From positions 2,640,001-2,672,000 of the forward strand of contig NZ_CP066019.1 of the NCBI RefSeq assembly GCF_016127575.1: a stretch of DNA of 32,000 nucleotides, written 5' to 3'. Position numbers and translations under genes: made by a program. This DNA comes from Cupriavidus necator. Its GTDB lineage: Bacteria; Pseudomonadota; Gammaproteobacteria; Burkholderiales; Burkholderiaceae. Shown here piece after piece: positions 5,935 to 28,975 of the stretch (position 1 is its first letter; each line of letters begins with the position of its first letter). The notes beneath the pieces were generated by a model. That model saw nothing but the letters and a program-made list of their open reading frames with translations, searched no databases and was not told the origin of the DNA.

Positions 5935-5950
5935 GTCTGCAGCTTCCGTA

Positions 5951-8324: not shown

Positions 8325-8349
8325 GCGATACCGGCACCCGGCCAGCAAG

Positions 8350-8583: not shown

Positions 8584-8625
8584 GTTGCTCAGTGGCTTAT
8601 CCGTTGCATGGGCGGGGGGCCGGGA

Positions 8626-9219
8626 TCAACCGGCCTTGCCGGGCCGGCCGCGCTGGCCGAACCAGTGCAGTTCCAGGCATTCGCGCAGGCGCATGCGGGC
8701 GCGGTACAGCATCGCCCAGGCATTGGTCGCGCTGATCTGCAAATGCTGACAGATTTCTTCGGTGTCCAGCTCCAGCCACTCGCGCATCATGAAGATCCGG
8801 CCGGTGCGCTCCGGCAGGCGGTCAACGCACAGCTGCAGGATCTCGAAGAACTCGCGGCGCTCAAAGGCGCGTTCCGGGTTGCCCCAGTCGGATGGCGGGT
8901 CCTGGTAGTGGCCGTTGCGCGTGAACAGCGCGTCGAAGGCATCGTCGTCGGATTGCCGCTGGCCTTCGGCATCGGTGGCCAGCGCCAGCCTGACCTCACG
9001 CTTGCCGCTGCGCAGGGTGTCGATGATCTTGTGCTTGAGGATACCAACCAGGTAGGTGCGCAGCGTTGACTGGCCGGCGAAGCGCTCAGGGTGCTCCAGC
9101 GCCGCCAGCAGTGTTTCCGAGACGGCATCCTCGGCCAGTGCCTGGTCGCGCAGCTGCAGGCGGGCAAAGCGCAGCAGGTAGGGGCGTATGGCCTGGAGTT
9201 CGGCGGGGTCGAGACTCAT
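8626..9219 (-). CDS. ECF-type sigma-70 family RNA polymerase sigma factor
   Basis: Region 2 is LLRFARLQLRDQALAEDAVSETLLAALE. Region 4 is LPERTGRIFMMREWLELDTEEICQHLQISATNAWAMLYRARMRLRECL. The start is set to MSLDPAEL at 9219. The longer ORF-track start at 9558 overlaps the upstream gene. Confidence 0.88.
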   Translation of the reverse strand: MSLDPAELQAIRPYLLRFARLQLRDQALAEDAVSETLLAALEHPERFAGQSTLRTYLVGILKHKIIDTLRSGKREVRLALATDAEGQRQSDDDAFDALFTRNGHYQDPPSDWGNPERAFERREFFEILQLCVDRLPERTGRIFMMREWLELDTEEICQHLQISATNAWAMLYRARMRLRECLELHWFGQRGRPGKAG

Positions 9220-9305
9220 CGGGGATCGGGGCGCGGTTGCCTGGACGGATGGCCCATGATACCCGCGCCTTACCCGATCCCGTGGGATTGCCCGCCGACC
9301 GCGCG

Positions 9306-10469: not shown

Positions 10470-10529
10470 GTTCCAGCTCCCCTTGTCCACTTGATGTCAG
10501 AAAATGCCCGGGCTCGGATGCCGTGCCAG

Positions 10530-14600: not shown

Positions 14601-15730
14601 CGCATCAGCTCGTTGAGCAGGTCGGCGGACGAGCTGGCGCTGGCTGCCGGCGCCAGCTCCGGCGCGTGCGCATCCTCTGGCGCCAGTGCGTCAGGCTGCG
14701 CCGCACGCAGGCGCGGCGCGGCGAAGGCGGGTGCATGCGCCGCCAGCTCGCCGCTGTCGCCGGTCAGGTAGACGCCGCGCAGATAGAAGGGCTCGTGATA
14801 GGCGCTGGGCCGCAGCAGTTCGTCGACATAGCGCGTGAGCTGCCCGCGCATGGCTTCGATGCGCGCCGGCAGCAGCAGCGACTGGCAGGCATCCACCTCC
14901 TGCGCCCCTATCGCCAGCAGCTCGGCCACACCGTCCGACACCGCGCGCACCACGCCCGACATGGCCGCATCGATCCAGCCCGACTGGTAGGTGGCCGACA
15001 GGTCGTACGGCGAGGACCAGCCCAGCATGCCGGCGCGCATCGGCTCTGGCAGCGCGCGCGCAAAGTGCGCGAAGCCCGGCAGCGACTCACAGCCCGTCAC
15101 CACCACATAGACCGCGAAACGCACCGCAAAGCGGTTCTGCGCCAGCCATAGCCGCCGGTGGGCCAGCTTGGCCCGGCGCACCAGCTCAAGCTGTGCGTCG
15201 GTGTCGTCGGCCAGCAGCATCGCCGCCGGCACCGTCACCACCACGCTGTCGAAGGGCCGTTGCGGGCGATAGCCGCGGCACAGGCCGAGGAACTCGTCCC
15301 AGGGCTTTTCATCGGTATCGTCGTCAGGCGAGCCCAGATAGGCCGCATTGATGTCGATGACCACGCCGCGGTCAAAGAAGTGCCATGAAATACCCTGCGT
15401 GGCGGCCGCATTGGCAGCGTCGGAGCCCAGCACGCTGGCCACGCCGGACTGAGCGATCGGCAGCGGCCGCGCATCCTCGCCCTCATTCAGGACCAGGATC
15501 CACGGAATGTTGTAGCGCTCGGCGCGCGAGGCGATATTGCCCTCGACCAGCTCGATCGCCTGGCGGAACGCGGTGCGCAGCGAATCGGTGCGCAGGCGCA
15601 CGATCTTGCGCTCGGCCGCCGGCTTGGCGCGGGCCCGCTGCGCAGCGAAATACAGCACCGCGCCGAGCACGGCCAGCGCCACCAGCGTCAGCACGCCGAT
15701 CGAAATCAGAAACAGGTTGCTGGTCAGCAT
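11612..15730 (-). CDS. tssM: Type VI secretion membrane subunit TssM (IcmF family), 1372 aa, P-loop degenerate
   Basis: N-terminal TM segment, cytoplasmic domain, second TM (ALRWGGMAVLCAWAGGLLVAAW), then a long periplasmic IcmF-related region. It follows tssL. The Walker A position reads IPWILVLNEGEDARPLP. Confidence 0.9.
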   Translation of the reverse strand: MLTSNLFLISIGVLTLVALAVLGAVLYFAAQRARAKPAAERKIVRLRTDSLRTAFRQAIELVEGNIASRAERYNIPWILVLNEGEDARPLPIAQSGVASVLGSDAANAAATQGISWHFFDRGVVIDINAAYLGSPDDDTDEKPWDEFLGLCRGYRPQRPFDSVVVTVPAAMLLADDTDAQLELVRRAKLAHRRLWLAQNRFAVRFAVYVVVTGCESLPGFAHFARALPEPMRAGMLGWSSPYDLSATYQSGWIDAAMSGVVRAVSDGVAELLAIGAQEVDACQSLLLPARIEAMRGQLTRYVDELLRPSAYHEPFYLRGVYLTGDSGELAAHAPAFAAPRLRAAQPDALAPEDAHAPELAPAASASSSADLLNELMRQPAFLRDLFEKKIFLEYGLTRPSRSQQLARPLVHRALRWGGMAVLCAWAGGLLVAAWQMGHRHAELLAALGELRAGAQQRALAAQRGQDLPPDWYRRQALGLIAMNQRLSAQSVSSWFMPGSWAFIDDLDGRVHDRFQRAFGEIALDTIDRELLARVDTLTGVGRDPSTGQLIIGDSCLAPPGARGEALPPRSLALEDMPEMRALQQYVAAVDQFDAALQALHRLETPQPANADALRLVVRYALGAELQGEVSGSLPYFQRDPGKGRGAASLATGGRALTALVPPLRCTFDKGARQLDERLFNNNPLLVAERAVRSSLDELAGGANAGSGVNRVLADYRGIVAAIGTQQELLASGKGGWIRQPQFAAGTVYARTLAQAAQNRLLGEDLVAAARARAESGFQAFTGELAQRFSGPDSGIAWQDKDGRFVVTPERLALRDRLAALLNQPFMAPPRDLALPSVPAGSAVLWDRQQLDQAIALGDMRKRFLDEGLTGLPGPWRDAIAQSVDQQFARLVTDQVATAAIMAPLQADGGSAGFEAALGRIARIKTMLGEMHAMSRVDDLDALVSRDALARLRAVDELLQQSELYAIRQGSAGDGARAPRSPLLTAFGLNDAAALGPYLDQQSARAQALGREAAVYLAALSPADAGSGLALRWQALNRDLERYRLKNPNSRLLMLEQFVQAAAAESGQGVCLARFAARPAGGDDYFAALHVRLYDGLLARCAQGYFADLQRQWDGFSATFNERLAGRAPFGGAANAGEVRTADYAELGRVLKRYEPLSATYRAARGDGPLRNIASGVPVHQFIDSFDQVRTLLAPLYPVEEGAPAGYDVSAEFRVNRGAELAGNQIIDWTLTIGAQSLSMRDAPRSLHWDYGSPVTLTLRFAKDSPMVALPDAEQRALAADGKTMTWRFADPWSLLSFIARHRIADPGGRADSTAQLLRFDFPLGSAAPDFTAAPRPVRGRVFLRLVLTAAGRKMPLPWPQSFPTRAPEWTNL

Positions 15731-15767: not shown

Positions 15768-16520
15768 TCATGGCGTGCCTCCGGCCACGGTGTCGGCCCG
15801 CAGCGCTTCGCGCACCGGCCAGGATTGCCACAGCCACGTCACCTCGGACAGCGCCAGCAGGGTGGCCAGGCCCAGCAGGAACACCACGGTCCAGCGCGTC
15901 AGCGTGGGCAGCTTGCGCGGCGCGATATGCGAGAGCGTGTGGGCGTACGCGGATTCGCTGAGCACGCGCTCGCGTCCGCCCAGGTCTGGCCGGCGTTGGT
16001 AGATGAACTCATACAGTTCCTCGCGCAGACTGCGCAGCCGCGCTTCGGCATCGGCGCCGCGAAAGCGCCCCTGGAAACCAAGCCCGAGCGTGAACAGGTA
16101 CAGCCGTGCCAGGTTGCGGCGCGACGGCTCGCGGTCCAGCAGCAGCTGCTCGATACGGCGAAACACCTGGTCGCCTGCCACGTTGGTGCGGAACAGCGTC
16201 GATTCGAGCAGATGCCCATGCCACGCGGCGCGGCCGGCCCAATCGGCGTTCAGCAGGATTTCATCGGCGAGCACCGCCTTCAGGTAGCGGGCATCGGCCA
16301 CGTCCTCCATCTCGAAGCGCGAGCTGTCGCGCCGCGATTGCAGGGTCTGCACTTCCAGCAGGTTCAGCAGCTGGCGGTTCATGCCTTGCGCGGCAGCTTC
16401 GCCGCTGAGGTCGGGTTGTTCGGAGAACCGCTCCTGCAGCTTGACGAGTTCATCCAGGAACGCCCGGAACTGCCCGGTGGCAAGATCGTCTTCCTCGGTT
16501 TCCGGTCGGTAGCGCGCCAT
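15768..16520 (-). CDS. tssL: Type VI secretion membrane subunit TssL (DotU family), no OmpA-like extension
   Basis: DotU-like core: ARYLKAVLADEILLN, LLESTLFRTNVAGDQVFRRIEQLL and LYLFTLGLGFQGRF. C-terminal TM is WTVVFLLGLATLLAL. Confidence 0.88.
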   Translation of the reverse strand: MARYRPETEEDDLATGQFRAFLDELVKLQERFSEQPDLSGEAAAQGMNRQLLNLLEVQTLQSRRDSSRFEMEDVADARYLKAVLADEILLNADWAGRAAWHGHLLESTLFRTNVAGDQVFRRIEQLLLDREPSRRNLARLYLFTLGLGFQGRFRGADAEARLRSLREELYEFIYQRRPDLGGRERVLSESAYAHTLSHIAPRKLPTLTRWTVVFLLGLATLLALSEVTWLWQSWPVREALRADTVAGGTP

Positions 16521-16546: not shown

Positions 16547-17875
16547 TCAGCCCTTGACGAACAGCAGCATTTCCTGCGGCCGCTGCACGCTGGCGCCTTC
16601 ATTGGGATTGCCGATCACCATCGCCTCGTTGGCATGGACCAGCGCGGGATCGGCTTCGATCTCGAACAACAGGTAACCCGAGCCGGAACGCACCCCAAGG
16701 TCCTCGGCATGCTCGACCACACGGCGCACCGCGCCCAGCACGCGCCGCGTGCGCAGCGACGGGTAGACCGACTGCGAGCCCACCACAGCGCCCGACATCC
16801 AGGCCAGCAGGTCGCGCTCTGACTGCCCGCGCAGGCCCACCACCAGGCGCTCGCCGATCCAGTCCGGCTGCAGCACGATGTCGAACGCGCCGTGGCGGAA
16901 CTCGAACTTGTGCTCGCGGTACTCTTCGCTGACCTCGGCCAGGGTCTCGCGCAGCGCGCGCAGCAGCGGCGTGAACACGGCCATGGGGTCGGCGTGTTCA
17001 TAGTCGTCCGGCACCGGCGGCAGGCCGCCCGGCTTGAGCAGGCTGAGCGACCCCAGCACCGAGGCCAGCGCCAGGTAGAGTGCAAGCGGGTGCAGATGCG
17101 GCGTGCGCAACACCGCCTCCAGCAGCGGCAGCGCGGTCACCAGGCTGCGCAAGCGGTCCTTCAGTTCCAGCTGGGTCAGGCGGTCGTCCGCCCGGGATGA
17201 CGGGATCGCGGTCTGCTTGGCCACGAACGCGGCCTTGCCGCGCAGCTGGGCCACCAGCGACGCCACCGCCGTCCACAGCGCGCTGCCGCGTGCCACCTCC
17301 AGCAACGGCGGCAGGCGGTCGCCGAGCCGCACGATCTCGTTGTCCTTGTAGACCGCGCCCAGGCACAGCGACACATGGAGCGGCGACGGCCTGGCGCCGG
17401 CATCGAGTGCCAGGCTTGGCAGCAGGCGCGGAATGTCGGCGGGCGGCGCTTCGGACACCTCATCCTCCACCGGGGCGCCCGCCACCGAGCGGAACCGCCG
17501 CACCTGCCCGTCCTTGCGGTTTGCGGCCGCCACCGGCAGGGTCAGGTAAAGCGCCAGCATGCCGCCGGCAAGCGCGTCGGCAAACGGCTCGAGCGCCAGC
17601 TCCAGCGGCGGCTGGCGGGCATCGTCGCGCGCGTAGGACACGGCAGTGCCGTCCGGCATGATGGCTTCGAGCTGCAGCACGCGCACCACGCCCGCCGGCA
17701 GCAGCCCGGCGTCGAACTCCAGCCGGCGCACGCCCCAGCCAAACGGTGCGGCCGCGAGTGTCTGCCACGCCACCAGCGAATCGAGCCGCCCGGCCAGCAG
17801 CTGGAGATGCTGGGGCGCCAGCAGCATGCCCTCATGCCATTCAACCCGATCGACCGGCAGCGCGCGCTCAGACAT
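16547..17875 (-). CDS. tssK: Type VI secretion baseplate subunit TssK
   Basis: The N-terminus VEWHEGMLLAPQHLQ matches the TssK hallmark (W.EGM.L.PQH.Q). Size is 442 aa. It sits between tssJ and tssL. Confidence 0.9.
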   Translation of the reverse strand: MSERALPVDRVEWHEGMLLAPQHLQLLAGRLDSLVAWQTLAAAPFGWGVRRLEFDAGLLPAGVVRVLQLEAIMPDGTAVSYARDDARQPPLELALEPFADALAGGMLALYLTLPVAAANRKDGQVRRFRSVAGAPVEDEVSEAPPADIPRLLPSLALDAGARPSPLHVSLCLGAVYKDNEIVRLGDRLPPLLEVARGSALWTAVASLVAQLRGKAAFVAKQTAIPSSRADDRLTQLELKDRLRSLVTALPLLEAVLRTPHLHPLALYLALASVLGSLSLLKPGGLPPVPDDYEHADPMAVFTPLLRALRETLAEVSEEYREHKFEFRHGAFDIVLQPDWIGERLVVGLRGQSERDLLAWMSGAVVGSQSVYPSLRTRRVLGAVRRVVEHAEDLGVRSGSGYLLFEIEADPALVHANEAMVIGNPNEGASVQRPQEMLLFVKG

Positions 17876-17920: not shown

Positions 17921-18424
17921 TCATTTGGTCACAAGCACGGTAAAGGCGGCGCTGTCGAGCTGCACGGCAAGCGTGCCGTTGAATTGCTCGACGCGGGCGC
18001 GATGCGCGCCCGGCGCCTGGTAGTTGGCGAACACATAGGCCGCGGCGACGCGCGGCCCCTCCAGGTCTTCGGCCGGCACGTCCAGCCGCTGGCCGGGCAC
18101 CAGTTCCCAGCTGCGATAACGCAGCCCGCTCGGATAGGTGCTGCCCAGGTCGCTGCGCCCGGCAAACCACTTGGCCGCGGGCAGGTCCGCCAGCCGGGCC
18201 TGCAGGGCCTCGTCGCTGACCAGCACCACGTCGACGGCCACCGGGCTGTTGCCGTTGGCATCCGCCGCCGCCGTCAGCGTGACTTGCTTCCATTTGACCT
18301 TGTCCCCCTTGAAGCCCAGCCATGAAGAGGCCGCGCAGCCCCCGAGCAGGCCAGCGAGCGCAGCCGCCGCCAGCAGCGTGCCGGCGCGGCGCAGGGATAA
18401 GAGATGCACGGGCGTCGTCATCAT
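17921..18424 (-). CDS. tssJ: Type VI secretion lipoprotein TssJ
   Basis: Lipobox LLGGC after a signal peptide. SciN-like ADANGNSPVAVDVVLVSDEALQARL. AAGGAG lies 4-7 nt upstream of the ATGATG at 18424/18421. The ORF track starts further upstream at 18457. Confidence 0.85.
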   Translation of the reverse strand: MMTTPVHLLSLRRAGTLLAAAALAGLLGGCAASSWLGFKGDKVKWKQVTLTAAADANGNSPVAVDVVLVSDEALQARLADLPAAKWFAGRSDLGSTYPSGLRYRSWELVPGQRLDVPAEDLEGPRVAAAYVFANYQAPGAHRARVEQFNGTLAVQLDSAAFTVLVTK

Positions 18425-18453: not shown

Positions 18454-19908
18454 TCATTTCGCACCCACCCCGATGCCCATCAGCACGATCAGCAGACCGG
18501 CCAGCAGCGCGCAGGCGCTGGCCAGCGCCAGTTGCGCGCGCGTCAGCACCAGCCGCACCGCCGCGGCCTGTGCGGCGGGCAGCCGTGGGCCCGGCACGTG
18601 CGCGCGCCCATCCGCGCCCTCCATCCGCTGCGCCGCGACGCGTTCCATCGGCAGGCCCACCGACACCAGCGCAATCACCGCGCAGGTGCAGACCAGGCTC
18701 AAGGCATTGCGCGGCCCATCGCAGATCGGGTCGATCGCCAGCAGCAGCACTGCGGCTGCCTCAGCCGGCAACTGCAGCACCGACAGCGCAACGCCCGCAT
18801 AGGCGATCGTTCCCAGGCCGCCCTGCCCCGCCGAGAGCCAGGCCGCGATGGTGGCGGCCATCGCGATCCATGCCACGTCGCCGGCGCCCACGGGGCGCCC
18901 GTACAGGTTGGCGACGAACACCGTGGCCAGCGCGAAGTACAGCGCCGAGCCCCCGCGCACGAACACCGCGCCCAGGGGCACCACCAGCTCCACCAGCCCG
19001 CGCGGAAAACCCAGCCGCGCGCTCATGGCCTCGATTGTGTGCGGGATCGGCGCGGTGGCGCTGCCTGAGGCCAGGCCGACCAGCATGGAGCCATTCAGCT
19101 CGGTCACCACCTGCGAGAACGGCAGCCGCGCGCAGGCGGCAATCGCGGCCGCGGCCACGCCGCTGAGCAGCAGGCAGAGCATCAGGAACGTGACCAGCAC
19201 CCCGGCCATCGCGCCCATGGTGGCGCGGTCGGCATGCATCGACAGATGGGCCGCAAGCCCGAATGCCAGCACCGGGATCAGCAAGTTGGCGTGGGCGATG
19301 ATCTGCTCGAAGGTGCGGTAGATCCCTTCGAACACATTGCTCAGCATGCCGGTCTGCTCGCGCGACAGCGCTGCGAAGGCAAGCCCGAACAGCAGCGCCC
19401 CGGTGAGCACGCCCAGCGTCTGGCCATGCGCCAGTGCGCGGTAGAAGTTGTCGGGAATGATGTTCCCGAGCGCGTGCGGCAGCTTGTCCGTATTGGCCTC
19501 TGCCTTGCCATGCAGGTCCACGCGCACCTCGCCGCCATCGGCCACGCCGCTGAGGATCAGCGCGCCAAGCTTTTCGCTGGCCTGTGCAGGGAGTTCCGCG
19601 CCCGGCGCGGTCAGCAGCCCCGCCAGCGCGCCGGCCAGCGCGCACACCCCCACCACCCCGGCAGCCGTGCCGAAGATGGCGCCGAAACGCGCCCCGGCGC
19701 GCGGCAGCGCCAGCACCTGGCGCAGGCCGAAGAAGGTGGCCACCACCAGCAGCGGCACCGCGGCCATGTTCACCACCGACAGGTAGAGCTGTCCGACCAG
19801 CCAGGCGAAGCGGCCCAGCGGCCCGGCCACGGTGCCGGCGAGCGCGCCCGCCACCAGGCACAAGAGCAGCCCGGGCACGCTGTGCGAGAGCCAGTTCAGG
19901 GCTTTCAT
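18454..19908 (-). CDS. Dicarboxylate/amino-acid:cation symporter (DAACS/SDF) family transporter, divergent, with an extra C-terminal hydrophobic tail
   Basis: Aligns by eye to the GltPh core: SGSATAPIP (SSSGTLP), VVPLGAVFVRGGSALYFALATVFVAN, and IDPICDGPRN (DxxxDxxR). The start at 19908 forms an ATGA overlap with the racemase stop. I judged the ORF-track N-terminal extension to 20364 spurious. Confidence 0.8.
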   Translation of the reverse strand: MKALNWLSHSVPGLLLCLVAGALAGTVAGPLGRFAWLVGQLYLSVVNMAAVPLLVVATFFGLRQVLALPRAGARFGAIFGTAAGVVGVCALAGALAGLLTAPGAELPAQASEKLGALILSGVADGGEVRVDLHGKAEANTDKLPHALGNIIPDNFYRALAHGQTLGVLTGALLFGLAFAALSREQTGMLSNVFEGIYRTFEQIIAHANLLIPVLAFGLAAHLSMHADRATMGAMAGVLVTFLMLCLLLSGVAAAAIAACARLPFSQVVTELNGSMLVGLASGSATAPIPHTIEAMSARLGFPRGLVELVVPLGAVFVRGGSALYFALATVFVANLYGRPVGAGDVAWIAMAATIAAWLSAGQGGLGTIAYAGVALSVLQLPAEAAAVLLLAIDPICDGPRNALSLVCTCAVIALVSVGLPMERVAAQRMEGADGRAHVPGPRLPAAQAAAVRLVLTRAQLALASACALLAGLLIVLMGIGVGAK

Positions 19909-20627
19909 GCGGCCTTGTTCCAGCCGCGCGCCAGCGCGAACGCCACCGTCGCCCGTGCCAGCTCGTTGGTGCTGTCGACCAGCATGAGCGGCGGCGCGGC
20001 CAGGCCGCGCGCCGCCACCGGGATTTCCGTGCAGCCCATGATCGCGGCGCCGACGCCGAGCGCCGCGATCCGCGCCAGCGCGCTGCCAAGCGCCTCGCCG
20101 GCCTGGTCCAGGGCGCCGGCCTTGACCGCCCGGATGCAGGCATCGACCTGCAGCTGCACCGGCTCCGGCGGCACCACCGCCGCGATCCCGCGCGCGTCGA
20201 GCGCTGCCTGGTAGATGCCGGAGGCCAGCGCACCGCGCGTGGCCAGGATGGCCACGCTGCCGGTATCGGCAGGCAAGGCCGCCACGCAGATCCGCGCGAT
20301 ATGCAGGATCGGCGCCGCGCTGTGCGCGCTCAGTTGCGCATACCAGTGGTGCGAGGTATTGCACGGGATCACCACCAGCCCCACCTGGTTGCGGTTGAGC
20401 AGCTCGATGCCGCGCAGCAGGTAGGGCAGCGGCAAGGCATCGCCAGCCAGGATCGAGCGCGAGCGGTCAGGAGTCTGCGGCAGGTGCGCCACCACCATCG
20501 GCAGGTGGTCCTGGTCACGCACGGCATCGGTAAGCCGAACCACGCGATCGAGAAAATCCACTGTCGCCAGCGGCCCCATGCCGCCCAGCACCCCGATCAT
20601 GGTCATGCCAGTACTTCCGTTGTTCAT
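19905..20627 (-). CDS. Aspartate racemase (Asp/Glu/hydantoin racemase family)
   Basis: IGVLGGMGPLATVDF, and both catalytic-Cys motifs: VIPCNTSHHW and IMGCTEIPV. Size is about 240 aa. An alternative start is at 20606. Confidence 0.85.
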   Translation of the reverse strand: MNNGSTGMTMIGVLGGMGPLATVDFLDRVVRLTDAVRDQDHLPMVVAHLPQTPDRSRSILAGDALPLPYLLRGIELLNRNQVGLVVIPCNTSHHWYAQLSAHSAAPILHIARICVAALPADTGSVAILATRGALASGIYQAALDARGIAAVVPPEPVQLQVDACIRAVKAGALDQAGEALGSALARIAALGVGAAIMGCTEIPVAARGLAAPPLMLVDSTNELARATVAFALARGWNKAA

Positions 20628-20638
20628 ATGAGCCGACC

Positions 20639-21973
20639 CTAAAGCTTCAGCGGCCGCGGGCAGATCACCGACACCGCCGCGGTATTGCCGACCACCAGGA
20701 TCAGCGTGCGCAGCATGTCGCAGACCGGGTCGACGGCAAGGAAGAGAATGAATGCGGCCTCGAATGGCAGGCCAAGATAGGCACAGGTCATGCCGACCAG
20801 CGAAACGATCACCAGGCCCGTCATGCCGGCCGAAGCAAAGCCCGCCAGCACCGAGGCCAGCAGCACCGTGGCGATATCGACCAGGCCCAGCGGATGGCCG
20901 TACAGCTGCGCGATGAACAGCGTGGCGCAGACGTAATAGACCATCGGCCCCACGCGCAGCAGCGAGATCGCCAGCGGCACCAGCAGTTCCACGCGCACCC
21001 GGGCAAAGCCGAGCCGGTCGACCAGGCACTCGATCATGCTGGGCATGCAGGCCGCGCTGTTGCGCGTGGCCAGCGCCAGCGCAAATGGTGAGCGCAGCGC
21101 GTCCAGCGTGGCGCCCAGGCTCTGGCTGGAGCGCTTCCAGATGATCCCGACGGCCAGTGCCAGCAGCAGCACCGACGCGATAGAGAACGCCAGCACGAAC
21201 TGCATCATCGCCTGCAGCGGCTCCAGTCCGGACTTGCCCAGCTGCGCCGCGCTCATGCAGAACAGGATCACGGGCAGCGGATAGCTGAGCCAGTGCATCA
21301 GCTTCTGGCAGGCGTGGTAGACCGTTTCCAGCGACAGGCTCAGCCCGATGGAAATGCGCTCGGGCACGCGCCCCACGGCCAGGCCGAACATCAGCGCGAA
21401 CACCAGGGCCTTGAGGGCGTCGCCGTTGGCGAGCGCGGCAAAGATATTGGTCGGGATCAGGCTGGTCAGGACTTCGGACAGGCTCAGCGACTTCTCCTGG
21501 ATATCCTCGCCGTAGAGGTTCATCACCGTATCGCTGGACGTGGCATCGCTGCCCACCATCGCGCCGAAGGTCTCCATGGTGGCGCTCGACAGGTTGCTGC
21601 CCGGGCGCATCACGATCAGCACCAGTGCCGACACCAGCGCCACCAACAGCGACGCGCCGACAAACACCGTCACCACGCGGATCATCAGCCGCGAGGCCCC
21701 ACCATCGCGGAACAGCCGCTGCAGGCTGAAGATCACCGCCGACACCATGAACGGCAGCGTGGTCATCTTGAGCAGGTCCACGTAGACATCGCCCACCACG
21801 CCCAGGTGCCGGGCCAGCGCGGGCCAGAGCAGCCCGGTGGCGCCGCCCAGCGCCAGGCTGCCGATCACCACCCACGGATTGAGGGCAATGGCGTAGAGCT
21901 TGCCGGCATCCAGCTTCATGGACGCGGCGCGCTGTGCCTGGGCCGCGCCCGGCTTCATGGCGGGCGCGCTCAT
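20639..21973 (-). CDS. Dicarboxylate/amino-acid:cation symporter (DAACS/SDF) family transporter, divergent
   Basis: [26 protein letters not shown] aligns to GltPh [43 protein letters not shown] matches IDAILDMGRTMVNVTGD. The start forms an ATGA overlap with the upstream binding-protein stop. Confidence 0.82.
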   Translation of the reverse strand: [444 protein letters not shown]

Positions 21974-22941
21974 CGCGTGGCCGCCTGCAGCACGTCCGCC
22001 ACCTCGAGCCGCTTGGGCCGCTCGGCGAGGAACTGGTTGACAAAGCCCAGCAGCGCCGGCGCCGACACGTTGACGGCGATGCCCAGCGTGTCCTCAAGAT
22101 CCTGCAGCGTCACCACGCGCAGGCGCAGCGCAGCGGTCGGATCCGCCTTGAGCACGCGCTTGACCTCGAACTCGTCGCGGTACACCGCGGCGACGCGGCC
22201 GTCGTTCAGCGCCTTCAGGGCTTCATCCCAGGTTGGATAAGCCGTGACGTAGGCCTTGGGAAAATTGTTCACCACATACTCCGAGTACGACGAATTTCCG
22301 ACCACGCCAATCGAGCTGTCATAGGCGCGGATCACCTCCGGCACCGGCCGGCCGCGTGCCATCTGAGCGAACTTGACGCGATTGAGCAGCAGCGCGCGGT
22401 TCAGCCGCAGGTAAGGTGTGCTGAAGCTGATGATCTGCATGCGCGGCAGCGTGCGCGACAGCTTGCTGATGGCCACGTCGGCCTGTCCCTGCGCCAGCAG
22501 CTTGACCACCCCGTCGAAGGTGGTGGCGTCGCGGTTGAAGCGCACCCGCACGTTGAGCTTGCGCGCAAGCTCGCGCGCGAGGTCGATATCGAGCCCGCTC
22601 AGCTCGCCGTTGCGCTCCTGGAAGAACGGGGGCTGGTCCACCTTCAGCACCGCGACCACCAGTTCGCCGCGGCTGGCGATGCGGGCGAACTCCGGCGCCA
22701 TCAGGCGTCCGTCAGGCATCAACACCAGTCCGTTCGGTGTGGAGACTGGCGCAGGGGCGCCTTCCGGCAACCCGCCCTGCGCGGCAAACGATGCCGCCGG
22801 GTGGGCCGGTGCCGGCGTGTAGGTGGCCTGCGCATGGCCAGCGGCCGGCAGGGCAAGCGCGGCGCCCGCGAGGGCGCGCGCCAGCCAGCGCCACGCGCGT
22901 GTTGCCGCGCGGCGGGAATCAGGGACGGGAGTCAGCGACAT
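21970..22941 (-). CDS. Periplasmic solute-binding protein, family 3 (polar amino-acid binding type), with a long Ala/Pro-rich linker
   Basis: Signal peptide with the Tat-like DSRRAATRAW and cleavage near GHA-QA. SBP_bac_3 core: LVVAVLKVDQPPFFQERNGELSGLDIDLARELARKLNVRV, GQADVAISKLSRTLPR and FSTPYL. The start is set to 22941. Confidence 0.8.
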   Translation of the reverse strand: MSLTPVPDSRRAATRAWRWLARALAGAALALPAAGHAQATYTPAPAHPAASFAAQGGLPEGAPAPVSTPNGLVLMPDGRLMAPEFARIASRGELVVAVLKVDQPPFFQERNGELSGLDIDLARELARKLNVRVRFNRDATTFDGVVKLLAQGQADVAISKLSRTLPRMQIISFSTPYLRLNRALLLNRVKFAQMARGRPVPEVIRAYDSSIGVVGNSSYSEYVVNNFPKAYVTAYPTWDEALKALNDGRVAAVYRDEFEVKRVLKADPTAALRLRVVTLQDLEDTLGIAVNVSAPALLGFVNQFLAERPKRLEVADVLQAATR

Positions 22942-22961: not shown

Positions 22962-23240
22962 TCAGGGAGTCGAGGGCGCGCCTGGAGCCGCGGCAAGGCC
23001 AACGGCAATGGCGGGCGCCTGGGTGGCGGCGGGCAGCGTGGCAGTGGCCGGGGCCGCGGGCGCCACGGCCATGGGTGCGGTGTCCGCACGCTGGAGTACG
23101 CCAGGCCGTCCCAGGCGGGCGCCGATCTCCACGCCCATCAGGAACAACAGCGCACACAGCAGCACCGCGCAGGTCACGGCGATTGTCACCATGCGCGAGC
23201 TCATCGAGAATACGTAGGTCATGCTTGCCTCGGCGGTCAT
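22962..23240 (-). CDS. Small single-pass membrane protein with an Ala/Pro-rich tail (86-92 aa), unknown function
   Basis: The ATG at 23240 overlaps the TGA of the DUF4280 gene (TGATG). TM segment is MVTIAVTCAVLLCALLFLMGVEIG. GC3-rich frame. The stop is 20 nt before the binding-protein start. Confidence 0.55.
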   Translation of the reverse strand: MTAEASMTYVFSMSSRMVTIAVTCAVLLCALLFLMGVEIGARLGRPGVLQRADTAPMAVAPAAPATATLPAATQAPAIAVGLAAAPGAPSTP

Positions 23241-23626
23241 CAGGGGGTCATCACGGTGGCCTGCGCCGGCGCGACGATCTGGATCACGCCGCCCCATGCG
23301 CACATCAGTTTCGAGCTGTCCTGCAGCGCCGGCGCGCCGCCGATCTGCACGGTCGGCGCGCCCGGCAGCCACGGCGCCGACGTCGCCGGCACGCAGGGCA
23401 TCGGTGTCAGCACGCCCTGCGCCGCGGCGGTGGCCGCGGCCACCTGCGGGTTGCCCAGGCAGTTGCACATGCCGAAGGGCGGGATGTTCACCATCGGCAG
23501 GTGGTCCATCACGCTGGCCGCACCGGTGCCGGCCAGCACGCGGCCCAGCGGCAGCACGACCAGGCTGGACGGCGCCAGCCCGAAGCTGCACTGCATGGTC
23601 GCGCCCATGGTGACCTGCAAGGCCAT
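23240..23626 (-). CDS. PAAR-like DUF4280 domain protein (128 aa, no extension domain)
   Basis: MQCSFG, VNIPPFGMCN, PMPCVPATSAPW, APALQDSSKLMCAWGGVIQI match the DUF4280 Cys pattern. GAGGGG lies 7 nt upstream. The start is 2 nt after the MORN-protein stop. Confidence 0.85.
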   Translation of the reverse strand: MALQVTMGATMQCSFGLAPSSLVVLPLGRVLAGTGAASVMDHLPMVNIPPFGMCNCLGNPQVAAATAAAQGVLTPMPCVPATSAPWLPGAPTVQIGGAPALQDSSKLMCAWGGVIQIVAPAQATVMTP

Positions 23627-23628
23627 GG

Positions 23629-24333
23629 CTAACCCCTCAGCCAGCGTTCGAGACGCTGTGCAAAGCCGGCGGGCACTGCCGCGCCCTCCTCGCCATCGGC
23701 GGGTGCGATCGCCTGCCAGTCGCCGCGGGGATTGCCGTCGGCGTAGCTGCGCACGGCGATGACCTCGCCTTCCGGGTCGAACCTGCGCGCCATGCCGTGC
23801 AGCAGGTCGTTGCGGTACGGCAGCGACTGCGCCAGCGTGCCGCCGGCGCCGTACTCACGGGTCTCGCCCTCGAGCCTGCCGGCGCGGTAGCGGCTGCGGC
23901 GCACCACCGCGCCCTCATGCGCATAGACGGCCTCGTCCTCGAGCCGGCCCTGCCGGTAGACGCAGCGCGCGGTCACCTCGCCGGACGGCGCGTAGCACAC
24001 GCTCTCTCCCGCGAGCTGCCCGTCGGCGTACAGCTGGCGCGTCTCCAGCCGGCCGTTGCGGTAGGTGGCGCTGGTGCCGTGCAGGCGGCCGCCGGCATAA
24101 TGCGCTTCGTATTCGAGGCTGCCATCGGCGGCATAGGCACGCAGCAGCCCCGCCAGTTCGCCATGTTCGTATTCGGCATCCAGGCGCAGCGAGCCATCCG
24201 GATGGAAGCACTCGAACCTGCCGTGGGGGCGCCCGCCGGCCAGCGGCACGCGCGACACCAGGCGGCCATCGCCGTCATAAGCTTCGGCCATGGCGGGTCC
24301 TGGATCGGGCGGCGTCGGGGCAGCTAAAGTCAT
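23629..24333 (-). CDS. MORN-variant (YwqK/COG2849-type) repeat protein, 7-8 repeats of about 23 aa
   Basis: Repeats of the form G-x-L/P-H/A/E-G-x5-Y-x3-G-x-L: GRPHGRFECFHPDGSLRLDAEYEH, GELAGLLRAYAADGSLEYEAHYAG, GRLHGTSATYRNGRLETRQLYAD and so on. The start is 16 nt after the vgrG stop, with an alternative start at 24291. Confidence 0.8.
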   Translation of the reverse strand: MTLAAPTPPDPGPAMAEAYDGDGRLVSRVPLAGGRPHGRFECFHPDGSLRLDAEYEHGELAGLLRAYAADGSLEYEAHYAGGRLHGTSATYRNGRLETRQLYADGQLAGESVCYAPSGEVTARCVYRQGRLEDEAVYAHEGAVVRRSRYRAGRLEGETREYGAGGTLAQSLPYRNDLLHGMARRFDPEGEVIAVRSYADGNPRGDWQAIAPADGEEGAAVPAGFAQRLERWLRG

Positions 24334-24349
24334 GGCTCTGTTCCGCGGC

Positions 24350-26251
24350 TCAGTTCAGTTTCACCAGGGCGCCCTTGAGCTCGAGCATGCCGCCGCTTTC
24401 CACCGTCTGCGCGGCCGACGCCTTCTGCCGGACCATCATGGCTTCGTTGCTCAGGGTGGTACCGGCCTTGCTGCTCAACGTGGTGCCGGCCTCGCACTGC
24501 AGCGAGGTTCCCGCCTTGAACGCGATCGATCCACCGACCTCGATCACCAGGTTGCCGGCCACCGTGAGCTTGTAGTTGCCGCCAACGTCGTGCGCAAACG
24601 CCGCGCCGCTGGTGTGGGTCTCGTCGCCGTCCGCCTTGACCTGGCGCGTGCCGCTCACCTTGTGTGTTTCATTGCCGGACCGCACTTCGAGCGCAAGGTC
24701 GCCGGCCTTGACCAGGTGCGATTCGCCGCCCGCCTCCACCATGGTGGACAAGGTGTCTGCCACCGAAACCGTCATGGCGCGCTGGGCGCGCAGGAACAGC
24801 TCCTCGGCACCAGCCTTGTCTTCCATGCGCAGCTCATTGCCGGCCGACCCGCCCTTCGATGCGCGCGAACGGATCACGCTCTGCGTCTGCATGGCGGGCA
24901 GCGGCACCGGTACGCCGGACTGGCCGTTGTAGACGCTGCCGGTCACCAGCGGCCGGTCCGGGTCGCCATCGACATAGCTGACCACCACCTCCTGCCCCAT
25001 GCGCGGCAGGAACAGGTGGCCCCAGCCGGCGCCGGCCCAGGCCTGCGCCACGCGGACCCAGCATGAGCTGTCCTGGTTGGCGCCGGGCGCACGGTCCCAG
25101 TGGAACTTCAGCTTGATACGGCCATGCGCATCGGTCCAGATCTCTTCGCCCTGGGACCCGGCCACGGTCGCGGTGTGCGTGCCGGCGACCAGCGGCCGCG
25201 GCGTGCTGAGCGGCGCGCGGAATGGCACCGACAGCGGCAACACCGACACGGTATTGCCATAGGCATCACCGCTCCAGGCATGCTCCACCGCGCGCACCAC
25301 GTAGGCGATATCGAGCGCGGGATCGACGTGGCCGTGCAGCGTGAAGCGGATGCCCGCGGCCAGGTGGTGGCACGCGCTCTCGCCCATGCCCGTCTGCGCC
25401 TGGGCCTGCTGCGCGCCGGCCCGGATCGCGGCCTTGCGGCTGGCGTCGGCGGCATCCTTGTGCCGGCCGGGAAACACGTACTGCTGCGCCACCGGCGCCG
25501 CGCCGGCCTGGGCGGTGCCCTGCGAGGTCCGGGCCTGCAGGTAGTCGTAGTCGGCCAGAACCTGCGTCGCGGCGCCAAGCTGGCGCGCCATGCCGAAGGC
25601 GAGCATCCGTGCCGCGCCGGCCTGCGGGCGCTCCATGTCGTGCATCGCCAGGTCGGCGCAGTGCGCGCCGGGCGGGTGGGCCGACGGGCTGTCGGCCAGC
25701 ACCATGGTGTGCGCGCCGTCCGCGAACGTGAAGAAGTAGAAGATGCCTTCCTCCTCCATCAGCCGCGAGATGAAGTCGAACGGGCTTTCGTCGTACTGCA
25801 CACAGTACTCGCGCATCGGGTAGCGCGTTTCCGTGATGCGGGCCTCGAACGCCACGTCGAAGGACTGCAGCACGCGGCGGATGATCTGCGGCGCGGACAG
25901 GTTCTGGTAGATGGCGCGGTCGCGCCCGAGGGTCAGCAGCCACAGCCGCGGCGCCAGTTCCGCGGTGTAGAAGCCATGGTTGTGGTCGGCGCCGGCGTGG
26001 GCAAAGCGCGTGACGATGCCGTTCAGGTAGCGGGGCGCGCCGCCCGGGTGCTGCAGCGTGACGGTGAGGCGCTGGCCCACGATGCGGCCCGCGTCGAGCG
26101 CCTTGTCCGCCGAGCGCATGCGCAGGCTGAAGCGGAACAGCTCGGACAGCGCCTCGCGCCCGGCAAAGCCGTCGAGCAGCAGCACGTCGCCGCCAAACGG
26201 CGTGGCCAGGGTCGCGAAGCTGCCGGCCTGGGTGGCCTGTGTCGGGATCAT
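24350..26251 (-). CDS. vgrG: Type VI secretion spike protein VgrG (633 aa, no C-terminal effector extension)
   Basis: LSELFRFSLRMRS at the N-terminus. gp27/gp5 core with PRMGQEVVVSYVDGDPDRPLVTGSVYNG. C-terminal beta-helix repeats end in LELKGALVKLN. Confidence 0.92.
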   Translation of the reverse strand: MIPTQATQAGSFATLATPFGGDVLLLDGFAGREALSELFRFSLRMRSADKALDAGRIVGQRLTVTLQHPGGAPRYLNGIVTRFAHAGADHNHGFYTAELAPRLWLLTLGRDRAIYQNLSAPQIIRRVLQSFDVAFEARITETRYPMREYCVQYDESPFDFISRLMEEEGIFYFFTFADGAHTMVLADSPSAHPPGAHCADLAMHDMERPQAGAARMLAFGMARQLGAATQVLADYDYLQARTSQGTAQAGAAPVAQQYVFPGRHKDAADASRKAAIRAGAQQAQAQTGMGESACHHLAAGIRFTLHGHVDPALDIAYVVRAVEHAWSGDAYGNTVSVLPLSVPFRAPLSTPRPLVAGTHTATVAGSQGEEIWTDAHGRIKLKFHWDRAPGANQDSSCWVRVAQAWAGAGWGHLFLPRMGQEVVVSYVDGDPDRPLVTGSVYNGQSGVPVPLPAMQTQSVIRSRASKGGSAGNELRMEDKAGAEELFLRAQRAMTVSVADTLSTMVEAGGESHLVKAGDLALEVRSGNETHKVSGTRQVKADGDETHTSGAAFAHDVGGNYKLTVAGNLVIEVGGSIAFKAGTSLQCEAGTTLSSKAGTTLSNEAMMVRQKASAAQTVESGGMLELKGALVKLN

Positions 26252-26254
26252 GCG

Positions 26255-28975
26255 TCAGCACCCCGCTTGCGGCAGGAAGCGGAACGCCACCCCGCCGCCG
26301 GTGTCGAGCGAGAGATGCACGCCGCCGAACGGCTCCGAGATCGACAGCTGCTCCAGCACGCGCCGCGCCAGTTCCGGCAGCACCGACTGGGTCAGGATAT
26401 GGTCGACATTGCGCGCGCCGCTGTCGACCTCGGTGCAGCGCTGCGTGATCGCCTGCGCCAGCGCCTCGTCCCAGCTCAGGCGCGCGTTGTGGTTGCGCGC
26501 AAAGCGCTGCGCCAGCCGCGCCAGCTTGAGGTCGACGATATTGCGGATCTGCGCATCGCCCAGGTGGTAGTACGGCACCAGCACCAGGCGCGCCAGGAAC
26601 GCCGGGCTGAACTGCCTGAGCAGCGCCGGGCGCAGCTTCTCGACCAGTTCCTGCGGCGGCGGGCGCCGGCCGCCGCGCGAGGCCTCGGTGATCACGTCCT
26701 GCGCCGCGTTCGAGGTCAGCAGGATCACCGTGTTGCGGAAATCGATCGGCACGCCTTCGCCGTCTTCCATCACGCCCTTGTCGAAGACCTGGAAGAACAG
26801 CTCCAGCACGTCGGGATGCGCCTTCTCCATCTCGTCGAGCAGCACCACGCTGTACGGGCGGCGGCGCACCGCCTCGGTCAGCACGCCACCCCGGCCGTAA
26901 CCGACATAGCCCGGCGGCGCGCCCTTCAGGCCCGACACGCTGTGGGCCTCCTGGAACTCCGACATGTTGACCGTGATCATGTTGCGTTCGCCGCCGTAGA
27001 GCAGGTCGGCCAGCGCATGCGCGGTCTCGGTCTTGCCGACGCCGCTCGGGCCGACCAGCAGGAACACGCCGACCGGCTTGCCCGGGTCATCGAGATCGGC
27101 GCGGAACGTGCGGATGCGGCGCGCGATCGCGTCGAGGGCCTCGTCCTGGCCCACCACGCGCTCGCCGAGCTTGTCCTGGAGGTACAGCACCGTGTGCAGT
27201 TCGTCGGCCAGCATGCGGCCGACCGGGACACCGGTCCATCCCGAAATGACCTCGGCCACTGCGGCCGAGTCCACGCATACCGGCACCATCGGCTCATCGT
27301 TCTGCACCGCCTCCAGGCCTTTTTCCAGGCGCGCGAGACTGGCGCCAAGCGACTCCGCGCTGTCGGCGTTGTCGTCGTCCTCATGCCTCGCCACACCGTC
27401 GGCACCGGCCTCGGCCTGGCTCTCCTTCTCGAGGAACGCCGCGATCCGGCGGCGCCAGGCCAGGATTTCCTCGACGGCCAGCTTCTCGGTGGCGAGCTTG
27501 TCGCTGAGCCGCGCGTGCTGCGCCCGGGCTTCGTCGCGCTGGCGCGTGACGGCAGCGATTTCGTCGGCGCGCCCGGTGCCGGTGGCCGCCTCATGGCGCA
27601 GGATGCGCAGCTGGTTCTCGGCGCTTTCGATCGAGCGCCCAAGCGCTTCGATCGCCTCGGGCACGCCGCTCTGCGCGGCCGCCACGCGGGCGCAGGCGGT
27701 GTCGAGCACGCTGATGGCCTTGTCGGGCAACTGCCGGCCCGAGACATAGCGGTGCGAAAGCTTGACCGCGTCGCGCACGGCGTCGTCGAGGATCTCCACG
27801 CCGTGGTGCGCTTCAAGCTTGCGCACCATGCCGCGCAGCATGTCCACGGCCGCGGCCTCGGCCGGCTCGTCCACCTTGACGATCTGGAAGCGGCGCGCGA
27901 GCGCTGGGTCGCGCTCGATGTACTTCTTGTACTCGGCCCAGGTGGTCGCGGCAATGGTGCGCAACTCGCCGCGCGCCAGCGCGGGCTTGAGCAGGTTGGC
28001 GGCATCGCCCTGCCCTTCGCTGCCGCCGGCGCCAATCAGCTGGTGCGCTTCGTCGATAAACAGGATCACCGGCACCGGCGAGGCCGCCACCTCGGCGATC
28101 ACGGACTTGAGCCGGTTCTCGAACTCGCCCTTGACGCCGGCGCCGGCCTGCAGCAACGCCAGGTCCAGCGAGCGCACCGACACTTGGCGCAGCGCCGGCG
28201 GCACGTCGCCGGAGACGATGCGCTGGGCAAAGCCTTCGACCACCGCGGTCTTGCCCACGCCGGCCTCGCCGGTCAGGATCGGGTTGTTCTGGCGGCGGCG
28301 CAGCAGCACATCGATCAGTTGCCGGATTTCACTGTCGCGCCCGCGCACCGGATCGATCGCTCCGGCTCGCGCCAGCGCCGTCAGGTCGACAGTGAACTGC
28401 TCCAGCGCCGATGCCTGCCCGCTGCCGGGTCCGCGCTGCGGCATGCCGAACGCTGGCGTGGCCGCCGCTGCCGGGATTGCATCGGTTCCGGGCCCGCCGC
28501 CAACGGCGGATGCCCCCAGCAGCGCGGGCAGGGCCTCGCGCAGCGCCGCACGCGGAATCCGCAGCAGCGCCGGCGCCGATTCCAGCAGCATGCCGCGCAG
28601 GCTTTCCACCTCCAGCAGTGCCAGCAGCAGCGTGCCGGCGCGCACTTGCTGCTCGCCGAGCAGCATCGAACTGAGCAGCCAGGCCTCCTGGAACAGCGGC
28701 GAGAAGTTAGGCGACAGCGCCGGCGTGCGGCCGTTGCCGCGCTTGAAGCCGTCGATCGCCTTCTGCAGCTGCGACACCACCTGCGCGGGCGCCAGGTCGA
28801 AGTGCGCGAGGATCGCCTGCAGGTCCGTGGCGCCGCCTTCCAGCAATTGCAGCAGCAGGTGCTCGACGTCGACGCTGTAGTGCGTCTGCCGGACGCAAAG
28901 CTGGGCGGCCTGCTCCATCGCGTGCCGGCACTCGGGATTGAGGCGGCTGAGCAGCGTGCGGATATCGATGTCCAT
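26255..28975 (-). CDS. tssH: Type VI secretion AAA+ ATPase TssH (ClpV)
   Basis: Clp N-domain. Two Walker A motifs, GEAGVGKTA and GPSGVGKTE. ClpB-like middle region. 906 aa, located between tssG and vgrG. Confidence 0.93.
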   Translation of the reverse strand: MDIDIRTLLSRLNPECRHAMEQAAQLCVRQTHYSVDVEHLLLQLLEGGATDLQAILAHFDLAPAQVVSQLQKAIDGFKRGNGRTPALSPNFSPLFQEAWLLSSMLLGEQQVRAGTLLLALLEVESLRGMLLESAPALLRIPRAALREALPALLGASAVGGGPGTDAIPAAAATPAFGMPQRGPGSGQASALEQFTVDLTALARAGAIDPVRGRDSEIRQLIDVLLRRRQNNPILTGEAGVGKTAVVEGFAQRIVSGDVPPALRQVSVRSLDLALLQAGAGVKGEFENRLKSVIAEVAASPVPVILFIDEAHQLIGAGGSEGQGDAANLLKPALARGELRTIAATTWAEYKKYIERDPALARRFQIVKVDEPAEAAAVDMLRGMVRKLEAHHGVEILDDAVRDAVKLSHRYVSGRQLPDKAISVLDTACARVAAAQSGVPEAIEALGRSIESAENQLRILRHEAATGTGRADEIAAVTRQRDEARAQHARLSDKLATEKLAVEEILAWRRRIAAFLEKESQAEAGADGVARHEDDDNADSAESLGASLARLEKGLEAVQNDEPMVPVCVDSAAVAEVISGWTGVPVGRMLADELHTVLYLQDKLGERVVGQDEALDAIARRIRTFRADLDDPGKPVGVFLLVGPSGVGKTETAHALADLLYGGERNMITVNMSEFQEAHSVSGLKGAPPGYVGYGRGGVLTEAVRRRPYSVVLLDEMEKAHPDVLELFFQVFDKGVMEDGEGVPIDFRNTVILLTSNAAQDVITEASRGGRRPPPQELVEKLRPALLRQFSPAFLARLVLVPYYHLGDAQIRNIVDLKLARLAQRFARNHNARLSWDEALAQAITQRCTEVDSGARNVDHILTQSVLPELARRVLEQLSISEPFGGVHLSLDTGGGVAFRFLPQAGC

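Follow-up and report, generated by a model that had tools for sequence, protein, structure and literature searches.

In 2021, Hug et al. described a type VI secretion system (T6SS) cluster of Paraburkholderia phymatum, T6SS-b of SecReT6 family i4a, in which genes for transport and racemization stand among the secretion genes (PMC8356804). The genes listed there after vgrG are a YwqK antitoxin, a PAAR-like protein, a hypothetical protein, an "amino acid ABC transporter," a sodium:dicarboxylate symporter, an aspartate/glutamate racemase, and a second symporter. The authors, who termed the symporters "intriguing," named Cupriavidus necator H16 as one of 15 strains carrying it, and their experiments were confined to promoter-gfp activity on carbon sources, which was highest on citrate. 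Two other described systems resemble parts of this arrangement. Bilophila wadsworthia combines an SDF transporter with the cysteate racemase CuyB and the D-cysteate sulfo-lyase CuyA (PMC11193023), and in Acinetobacter baumannii, in a setting of peptidoglycan editing, released, racemase-derived D-lysine can protect the producer and boost the T6SS effector Tse4 (PMC7439305; bioRxiv 10.1101/2021.03.04.433973). Here, we analyze the C. necator copy of the cluster. The window, as we call the whole stretch of DNA analyzed, comprises 32,000 nucleotides (nt) of C. necator H16 chromosome 2 (AM260480.1, ~2.72 to 2.75 Mb, reversed), and our subject is the four-gene cassette within its T6SS genes that encodes a solute-binding protein (SBP), a carrier (SDF1), a racemase, and a second carrier (SDF2).

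The T6SS-b gene order vgrG, MORN/YwqK, DUF4280, small hypothetical, SBP, SDF, racemase, SDF, tssJ-K-L-M-A is present in the window. It is identical to that of P. phymatum STM815 (Bphy_5978-5997), so that the two are the same system in different hosts, with no structural difference between them. The arrangement itself has therefore been known since 2021, with H16 named, which a preliminary description of this stretch had missed. PMC8356804 does not address the racemase, the link between binding protein and carrier, or the carrier motifs in P. phymatum. We found no literature follow-up on the four genes after that paper; searches linking aspartate racemase to T6SS returned incidental co-mentions only, and the Cupriavidus T6SS papers that we found deal with T6SS1 and are silent on this cluster. 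What is new here is how deeply and in what pattern the cassette is conserved, its derivation from a free trio, the restriction of SDF2 to T6SS, a carrier subfamily with Arg in place of the NMDGT motif, and evidence from fusions of SBPs to carriers of the dicarboxylate/amino acid:cation symporter (DAACS) family.

In the window, the T6SS genes and the cassette form one long gene array on the minus strand. The four cassette genes are as follows, with lengths in amino acids (aa).

21970-22941, minus strand: SBP, family-3 periplasmic amino-acid-binding protein, 323 aa (PF00497, 1e-19; PF10613)
20639-21973, minus strand: SDF1, atypical DAACS carrier, 444 aa (PF00375, 3e-59, 201 bits)
19905-20627, minus strand: racemase, pyridoxal phosphate-independent two-cysteine enzyme of the Asp-racemase/CuyB type, 240 aa (PF01177, 1e-36)
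18454-19908, minus strand: SDF2, second atypical DAACS carrier, 484 aa (PF00375, 2e-46, 159 bits)

Pfam matches and motif alignment bear out the gene identities of the preliminary description (an SBP, two DAACS carriers, and a two-cysteine racemase). Its coordinates and junctions were all correct on re-examination, the approximately 30 nt that it gave to tssJ being 29 nt. The SBP and SDF1 genes share an ATGA overlap at 21970-21973, as do the racemase and SDF2 genes at 19905-19908, where the SDF2 start overlaps the racemase stop. With the annotated racemase start, 11 nt (20628-20638) separate SDF1 from the racemase. A start at Met8 (20606) yields 233 aa and a gap of 32 nt; this is probably the true start, homologues being 233 aa long. 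On the upstream side, 20 nt lie between a small transmembrane gene and the SBP gene, and on the downstream side, 29 nt lie between SDF2 and the start of a lipoprotein gene (18424), which has a GAAGGAG ribosome-binding site. Base composition agrees with the earlier statement that the cassette resembles the T6SS genes, with a GC content of 0.694 (third-position GC [GC3], 0.86 to 0.91) against 0.707 for the T6SS core.

The best explanation of what follows is that the cassette is a conserved accessory of the T6SS-b (i4a) operon, captured once from a free SBP-SDF-racemase operon and co-inherited ever since. A TssK-seeded scan with one genome per species gave 23 loci, which were then compared with the window proteins by tblastn; the sampling of loci depends on pattern-seeded scans. 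In 20 of the 23, from Cupriavidus, Caballeronia, Paraburkholderia, and Variovorax (TssK, 66 to 96% identical), SBP, SDF1, racemase, and SDF2 occupy the same slot. The three loci without the cassette belong to one Janthinobacterium metagenome-assembled genome and two Robbsia clusters, where DUF4280 or the small gene is followed directly by the lipoprotein gene. Janthinobacterium sp. 1-2014MBL is reported to have retained the two carriers without the racemase. Homologues of the racemase and of SDF2 led to further cases of the same layout, in Rhodoferax, P. saeva, Achromobacter, Trinickia, Pararobbsia, and two metagenome contigs, which brings the cassette in this slot to at least 31 loci, 8 genera, and 3 families. 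One of the Paraburkholderia strains listed in PMC8356804, P. monticola JC2948, is represented among our loci (L010). In a plasmid collection, the sole match was the megaplasmid of Cupriavidus sp. P-10, which carries no annotation.

Neighbor-joining trees were generated from tblastn-derived segments. With VgrG, DUF4280, TssK, and TssL, the cassette-bearing clusters are monophyletic (bootstrap 100, or 77 with the divergent contig L036), and the cassette-less Robbsia and Janthinobacterium clusters are their sister group. Pairwise distances of the cassette follow those of the core (Mantel r = 0.987, with 0 of 2,000 permutations as high; slope, 1.01). The ratio of nonsynonymous to synonymous substitution (dN/dS) is 0.05 to 0.44 for the cassette and 0.03 to 0.44 for the core, values to be read with dS partly saturated at this GC3. 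SDF1 is the most constrained gene of the cassette (0.05 to 0.15), as constrained as TssK and TssL. The cassette is thus kept in related T6SS clusters, the opposite of the absence that the preliminary description had allowed for, and its view that this is no recent insertion is strongly confirmed by the shared slot throughout a monophyletic T6SS-b clade and by co-divergence with the core. Recent horizontal insertion is ruled out by GC and GC3 together with that co-divergence. A deviation in gene structure was seen in Variovorax sp. UC74_104 (L016, 7986-9929), where the SDF2 frame, at 647 aa, extends into the region of the lipoprotein gene; a frameshift, a fusion, or an error of sequencing could account for it.

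The SBP-SDF-racemase trio also exists as a free-standing operon without T6SS, in Burkholderia ambifaria, B. dolosa, and several metagenome contigs, the last reaching down to 32 to 36% identity. In a tree of concatenated SBP, SDF1, and racemase sequences, the deep free trios fall outside the T6SS-linked copies altogether, and the B. cepacia-complex trio is nested within the T6SS-linked clade (bootstrap 99). SDF2 accompanies all T6SS-linked copies of the trio, and no free trio has it. Carriers of the SDF2 type make up 214 clusters; those listed (120 of the 214) come from T6SS-b-bearing genera, with none from the B. cepacia complex, and in every genomic context checked they lie inside T6SS-b. The simplest history is that the free trio came first, that a single capture brought it into T6SS-b, with SDF2 present thereafter, and that the B. 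cepacia complex later released the trio without SDF2.

Among the neighbors of the B. cepacia-complex trios and of two further free trios, L038 and L035, we found no consistent catabolic partner, so these neighborhoods permit no substrate call. In L035, the trio is flanked by an efflux system, a CGGC protein, a methyltransferase, and a LysR regulator. The trios of B. ambifaria and B. dolosa (L026, 4793-8702; L111, 5714-9702) lie directly beside, and divergent from, the peroxide defense genes ahpC-ahpF, and a LysR regulator is close by. Since cysteate arises when cysteine is oxidized, the ahpC-ahpF neighborhood could be a hint at cysteate as the substrate, or it may be coincidence. In L038 (1555-14577), the trio (7840-10717, with 4-nt overlaps) is located inside a class II lanthipeptide cluster that includes an ABC exporter with a C39 peptidase, a second ABC protein, and a Peripla_BP_6 protein, and LanM is encoded on the opposite strand. 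Besides T6SS-b, this is another antagonism locus with which the trio is associated, in a single instance. Distant trios on low-GC metagenome contigs (0.37 to 0.40; L046, L047, L051, L053, L063, and L099, e.g., L051 7266-10714) have an extra gene between carrier and racemase, for a membrane protein of ~200 aa with no Pfam match, and their carrier motif reads TVNRIGS.

We next consider how the SBP may work with a carrier of this family. The protein consists of a signal peptide with an RR n-region, an Ala/Pro-rich linker, and an SBP_bac_3 domain. The triad that binds alpha-amino acids is kept, with S158/S161/T163, R166 for the alpha-carboxylate, and D255 for the alpha-ammonium group, and K159, R136, R187, R204, and R254 do not vary among 36 family members. 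Genes for an ABC permease or ATPase are absent from those identified in the window and related loci. In nearly all of 37 loci, trios at 32 to 47% identity among them, the SDF start codon is within a few nt of the SBP stop. An exhaustive HMMER search with SDF1 returned 320 representative clusters at E ≤ 1e-30, and among the best 150 of these, which we examined, 7 are fusions of an SBP_bac_3 domain with an SDF carrier. Two fusions (P0206 and P0259) run from a signal peptide through the SBP and a transmembrane anchor to the SDF part, and their SBP halves are 37% (3e-50) and 35% (4e-39) identical to the window SBP. The other five (P0162, P0172, P0192, P0221, and P0229) have a C-terminal SBP_bac_3-like domain with no hydrophobic or transmembrane linker, which would place the domain in the cytoplasm, oddly for a binding fold known as "periplasmic."

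Conserved start/stop coupling and fusion proteins argue for a binding-protein-dependent DAACS transporter made up of SBP and SDF1. The pairing of an SBP with DAACS carriers had been called unusual, an assessment that this coupling and the fusions strengthen. In the literature searched, we found no report of an SBP-dependent DAACS transporter and no description of a binding-protein-dependent branch of the glutamate-transporter family. The closest parallels are TRAP and TTT systems and the TAXI-GltS system of Bordetella pertussis (PMC12344293), in which an SBP gene is likewise translationally coupled to an elevator-type secondary carrier, SBP-carrier fusions occur in other organisms, and ABC components are absent. 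For TAXI-GltS, coupling and fusions are the same kind of evidence as we present for the predicted SBP-SDF1 partnership. The components differ: the cassette SBP belongs to SBP_bac_3 rather than DctP, TAXI, or TctC, and its carrier is a DAACS protein rather than DctQM, TctAB, or GltS.

Both carriers align over their full length with transporters of the GltPh/GltTk type (9bgz, GltTk, and GltPh), including the hairpins HP1 and HP2 and transmembrane segments 7 and 8, and full-length homology extends to the GltPh/GltTk/EAAT type in general. In SDF1, the NMDGT motif has become LRVGP, with Arg at the position of GltPh M311, D312 lost, N401 replaced by L, and D405 replaced by N; D394, R397, and T398 are kept. 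In SDF2, the motif reads VRGGS, with Arg again at the M311 position, N401 replaced by S, and D405 replaced by T, and D394 and R397 are kept. In GltPh, D394 binds the substrate amino group and R397 the side-chain acid. Unlike the GltPh/GltTk/EAAT-type proteins, both cassette carriers have the Na1/Na3 ligands N310, D312, N401, and D405 replaced in the alignment, and they would therefore lack canonical Na+ sites.

The same substitution is widespread among their relatives. Arg stands at the M311 position in 123 of the best 150 SDF1 representatives, and almost none of the 150 has D312, so that, judged by sequence, these proteins constitute a large DAACS subfamily without NMDGT or the Na+-site residues and with Arg at M311. 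Three relatives of SDF1 (P0181, P0209, and P0234; ~1,150 to 1,200 aa) are fused to dCache_1 and an adenylate/guanylate cyclase domain, which suggests that some members of the Arg type may act as transceptors. SDF2 is set apart from SDF1 and from canonical DAACS proteins by an extra C-terminal hydrophobic helix (...LIVLMGIGVGAK), present in all orthologues with the consensus ...LIVLMGIGVGA(K/R) (region 18454-18700, minus strand). The extra helix would put the C terminus of SDF2 in the periplasm.

The racemase matches PF01177 with 127 bits against a cut-off of 31. Its motifs PCNTSH (C89) and GCTE (C199) align with the catalytic C82 and C194 of Pyrococcus horikoshii AspR (PhAspR; 1JFL), and R55 and K169 align with PhAspR R48 and K164, the residues that hold the side-chain carboxylate in that enzyme. 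All four residues (C89, C199, R55, and K169) are invariant in 28 homologues. The NCBIfam model for the cysteate racemase CuyB (NF052483, an equivalog model) gives a score of 212.4 bits, above its cut-off of 190, against 135 bits for TIGR00035, and it is the best match for all 28 relatives tested. Aspartate is therefore not certain as the substrate. Of the earlier name "aspartate racemase," membership in the two-cysteine family and the PhAspR-like residues stand; "aspartate" is a family label only, given the CuyB score (212 against 190 bits), and "acidic alpha-amino acid" is the safer designation for a substrate predicted in this way.

An acidic substrate is suggested by several predicted features together: R55/K169 of the racemase and its CuyB score, the SBP triad and basic residues, D394/R397 of the carriers, and the pairing of SDF with CuyB in Bilophila. 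There, as in the cassette, a DAACS-family carrier adjoins a PF01177 two-cysteine racemase that acts, or in the cassette would act, on an acidic amino acid. Unlike the Bilophila system, the window and related loci lack CuyA and RidA, the cassette includes a periplasmic SBP and a second carrier, and its carriers lack NMDGT; the cassette resides in a T6SS operon, whereas the Bilophila context is catabolic. Neither the window nor the gene tables for related loci contain a gene for CuyA (PALP family, PF00291), the rest of the H16 genome not having been searched.

To return to expression, the sequence is consistent with the one-transcript architecture proposed for the locus. A scan for sigma70-like promoters and intrinsic terminators found no site at any cassette boundary. 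Four terminator-like matches all fall within coding sequence and do not exceed the number in shuffled sequence (2.3 ± 1.7), and a search with the sigma54 consensus gave fewer matches than shuffles did. The operon promoter is outside the window. In a P. phymatum transcriptome sequencing data set (PMC10991261, supplementary table), the cassette orthologues Bphy_5989 to Bphy_5992 shift together with their T6SS-b neighbors. The values are -2.41 for the SBP gene (Bphy_5989), -2.76 for the first SDF gene (Bphy_5990), -1.89 for the racemase gene (Bphy_5991), and -2.36 for the second SDF gene (Bphy_5992), compared with -2.49 for tssH, -2.09 for vgrG, -1.59 for tssK, and -4.12 for the DotU gene. This covariation with tss genes shows co-regulation of the cassette with T6SS-b for the P. 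phymatum orthologues, and is no proof of it for H16.

The T6SS genes on either side of the cassette are as follows.

29988-31763, minus strand: TssF, upstream core
28987-30033, minus strand: TssG, upstream core
26255-28975, minus strand: ClpV/TssH, upstream core
24350-26251, minus strand: VgrG (Pfam match)
23629-24333, minus strand: MORN_2/YwqK-like protein (Pfam match)
23240-23626, minus strand: DUF4280 PAAR-like protein (Pfam match)
22962-23222, minus strand: small single-pass membrane protein, 86 aa (no Pfam match)
17921-18424, minus strand: lipoprotein, presumed divergent TssJ, 167 aa (lipobox and position)
16547-17875, minus strand: TssK (Pfam match)
15768-16520, minus strand: TssL/DotU (Pfam match)
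11612-15730, minus strand: TssM (Pfam match)
10530-11627, minus strand: TssA (Pfam match)

The order VgrG, MORN_2, DUF4280 is kept in all related loci. The 86-aa membrane gene belongs to the T6SS part rather than to the cassette, because it is also present in the cassette-less Robbsia cluster L022. VgrG is short and the DUF4280 PAAR-like protein is bare (23240-26251, minus strand), and there is no recognizable toxin domain between vgrG and tssJ, so the T6SS-b effectors are presumably encoded elsewhere. As for the label tssJ in the preliminary description, it is supported by position, the gene always lying directly before tssK, and by a lipobox with an invariant Cys30; a family match is missing for the window protein. 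It has no Pfam match, PF12790 appears faintly (E ~0.06) in 3 of 11 orthologues, and a profile of the 11 orthologues gave no match among Protein Data Bank sequences. A single-sequence AlphaFold2 model of the lipoprotein was poor (mean predicted local distance difference test score, 52.6), and its Foldseek matches were meaningless.

Directly beyond tssA lies an open reading frame of 394 aa (9306-10490, minus strand) with a markedly lower GC content (GC 0.598, GC3 0.77) and no meaningful Pfam match, followed by an ECF-type sigma factor (8626-9558, minus strand; Sigma70_r2/r4_2). The only locus in which the open reading frame is conserved is the closest one from Cupriavidus, L003 (85%), and it is therefore not part of T6SS-b. 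A CusCBA/Czc-like RND efflux operon (OEP, HlyD_D23, and ACR_tran with 1,183 bits) flanks the T6SS cluster at 1470-7222 (minus strand).

For the role of the cassette, we tentatively favor, at rather less than even confidence, a shuttle in which an acidic amino acid is imported with the help of the SBP, racemized, and released through SDF2. The periplasmic SBP would capture an acidic alpha-amino acid (Asp- or cysteate-like) and hand it to SDF1, an elevator carrier with Arg replacing Na+-site residues, the two jointly acting as a binding-protein-dependent importer. The cytoplasmic two-cysteine racemase would interconvert the L and D forms, and SDF2, which has no binding protein and carries an extra C-terminal helix, would let the other enantiomer exit or equilibrate across the inner membrane. 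With the cassette transcribed together with the T6SS-b genes, stereo-conversion would run at all times when T6SS-b is expressed. The points that we infer are the class of substrate, a need of SDF1 for the SBP, the direction in which SDF2 works, and any benefit to the T6SS; racemization may be coupled to T6SS firing, immunity, or sensing, as had been suggested earlier. A T6SS-related role is favored by the presence of the cassette in every cluster of the clade examined, by its 1:1 divergence with the core, and by the occurrence of SDF2 only in T6SS-b.

Several points weigh against this shuttle. The T6SS-b promoter of P. phymatum was not induced by aspartate or glutamate (PMC8356804). In five of the seven fusions, the SBP-like domain is probably cytoplasmic, which suits regulation better than substrate delivery. 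The carriers could be coupled to H+ or something else, the loss of the Na+ sites resting on alignment, and export through SDF2, like the roles of all four proteins, is predicted. The trio of the B. cepacia complex has no T6SS with it; since it can stand alone, its chemistry is autonomous and the weapon is not needed for it. A racemase alone leads at best to a 1:1 mixture, and net flux needs a sink. A more specific form of the shuttle, "L in, D out," is unlikely: an uncharacterized class of SBP-dependent, cation-site-less DAACS carrier, together with the racemase and SDF2, would supply D-Asp or D-cysteate to the periplasm or surroundings when T6SS-b is on, thereby protecting the producer's wall or potentiating an effector. 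The D-amino acid context in Acinetobacter to which the preliminary description appealed is real. It differs from what we propose in that the A. baumannii compound, D-Lys, is basic, the genes lie outside the T6SS operon, and no SBP/DAACS module is involved; A. baumannii releases its D-amino acid, and for the C. necator cassette such a release is a prediction. The racemase of A. baumannii also belongs to a different class from that of the cassette.

Nutrient salvage is a real if rather unlikely alternative, in which both carriers import (one per enantiomer or affinity range), the racemase makes scavenged D-Asp, D-Glu, or cysteate usable, and the location in T6SS-b raises uptake when neighbors lyse or nitrogen is scarce. 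The free trios do resemble ordinary uptake and conversion operons, with a LysR neighbor in B. ambifaria, and a high-affinity SBP suits scavenging. The SDF-CuyB pair of Bilophila is catabolic (PMC11193023), and T6SS-b has been reported to be sigma54 dependent under nitrogen limitation (Lardi 2020, as cited in PMC8356804). However, salvage leaves unexplained why a second, SBP-less carrier is found in every T6SS-linked copy and in no free trio, and no gene for CuyA, a D-amino-acid dehydrogenase, or an aspartase is present in the window or any related locus examined. We regard as quite unlikely a passenger operon with its own metabolic use that rides the T6SS-b promoter and adds nothing to secretion, immunity, or regulation. 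Such a passenger is consistent with trios that exist without T6SS in the B. cepacia complex and elsewhere, with the lack of promoter response to aspartate and glutamate, and with purifying selection, which indicates that the proteins are useful and not necessarily that they serve the T6SS. Yet more frequent loss or relocation would be expected of a pure passenger than zero losses in at least 31 clusters and 8 genera, down to ~50% TssK identity, and neither the 1:1 divergence rate with the core nor the restriction of SDF2 to the T6SS-b context fits it.

A sensory role was raised by Hug et al. (PMC8356804): the SBP and the DAACS-like proteins would form a transceptor for a periplasmic amino acid or dicarboxylate that tunes T6SS-b assembly posttranslationally. 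Three SDF1 relatives fused to dCache_1 and a cyclase domain, five with a probably cytoplasmic SBP-like domain, the loss of canonical ion-coupling residues, and the proximity of SDF2 to the membrane-complex genes tssJ-L-M are all in keeping with this idea. It is nonetheless very unlikely in our judgment, as it gives the racemase no obvious role; D394, R397, and both hairpins are kept as in working carriers, SDF1 and SDF2 have no output domain, and the free trios have no T6SS to regulate. A VgrG-linked effector/immunity set has a negligible chance of being correct, and we reject it. Only the position downstream of vgrG and a PAAR-like gene, the usual place for cargo, speaks for it, and against it stand the housekeeping-type families of all four proteins with their intact active-site or binding motifs, the Sec/Tat-type signal peptide of the SBP, and the occurrence of the same trio without any T6SS.

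Retention of the cassette across a whole T6SS lineage spanning three families, together with a carrier found only with T6SS, is hard to square with a mere hitchhiker. If the "L in, D out" form of the shuttle is correct, it would mean that a metabolite arm is hard-wired into a secretion-system operon, and a D-amino acid supplied to the envelope by the cassette would add a second and independent example, after Acinetobacter, of D-amino acids in T6SS warfare. C. necator H16 is genetically tractable, which makes the different readings testable. With or without T6SS, the SBP-dependent branch of the glutamate-transporter family to which the fusions, the gene coupling, and the Arg subfamily point would matter for transporter mechanism.

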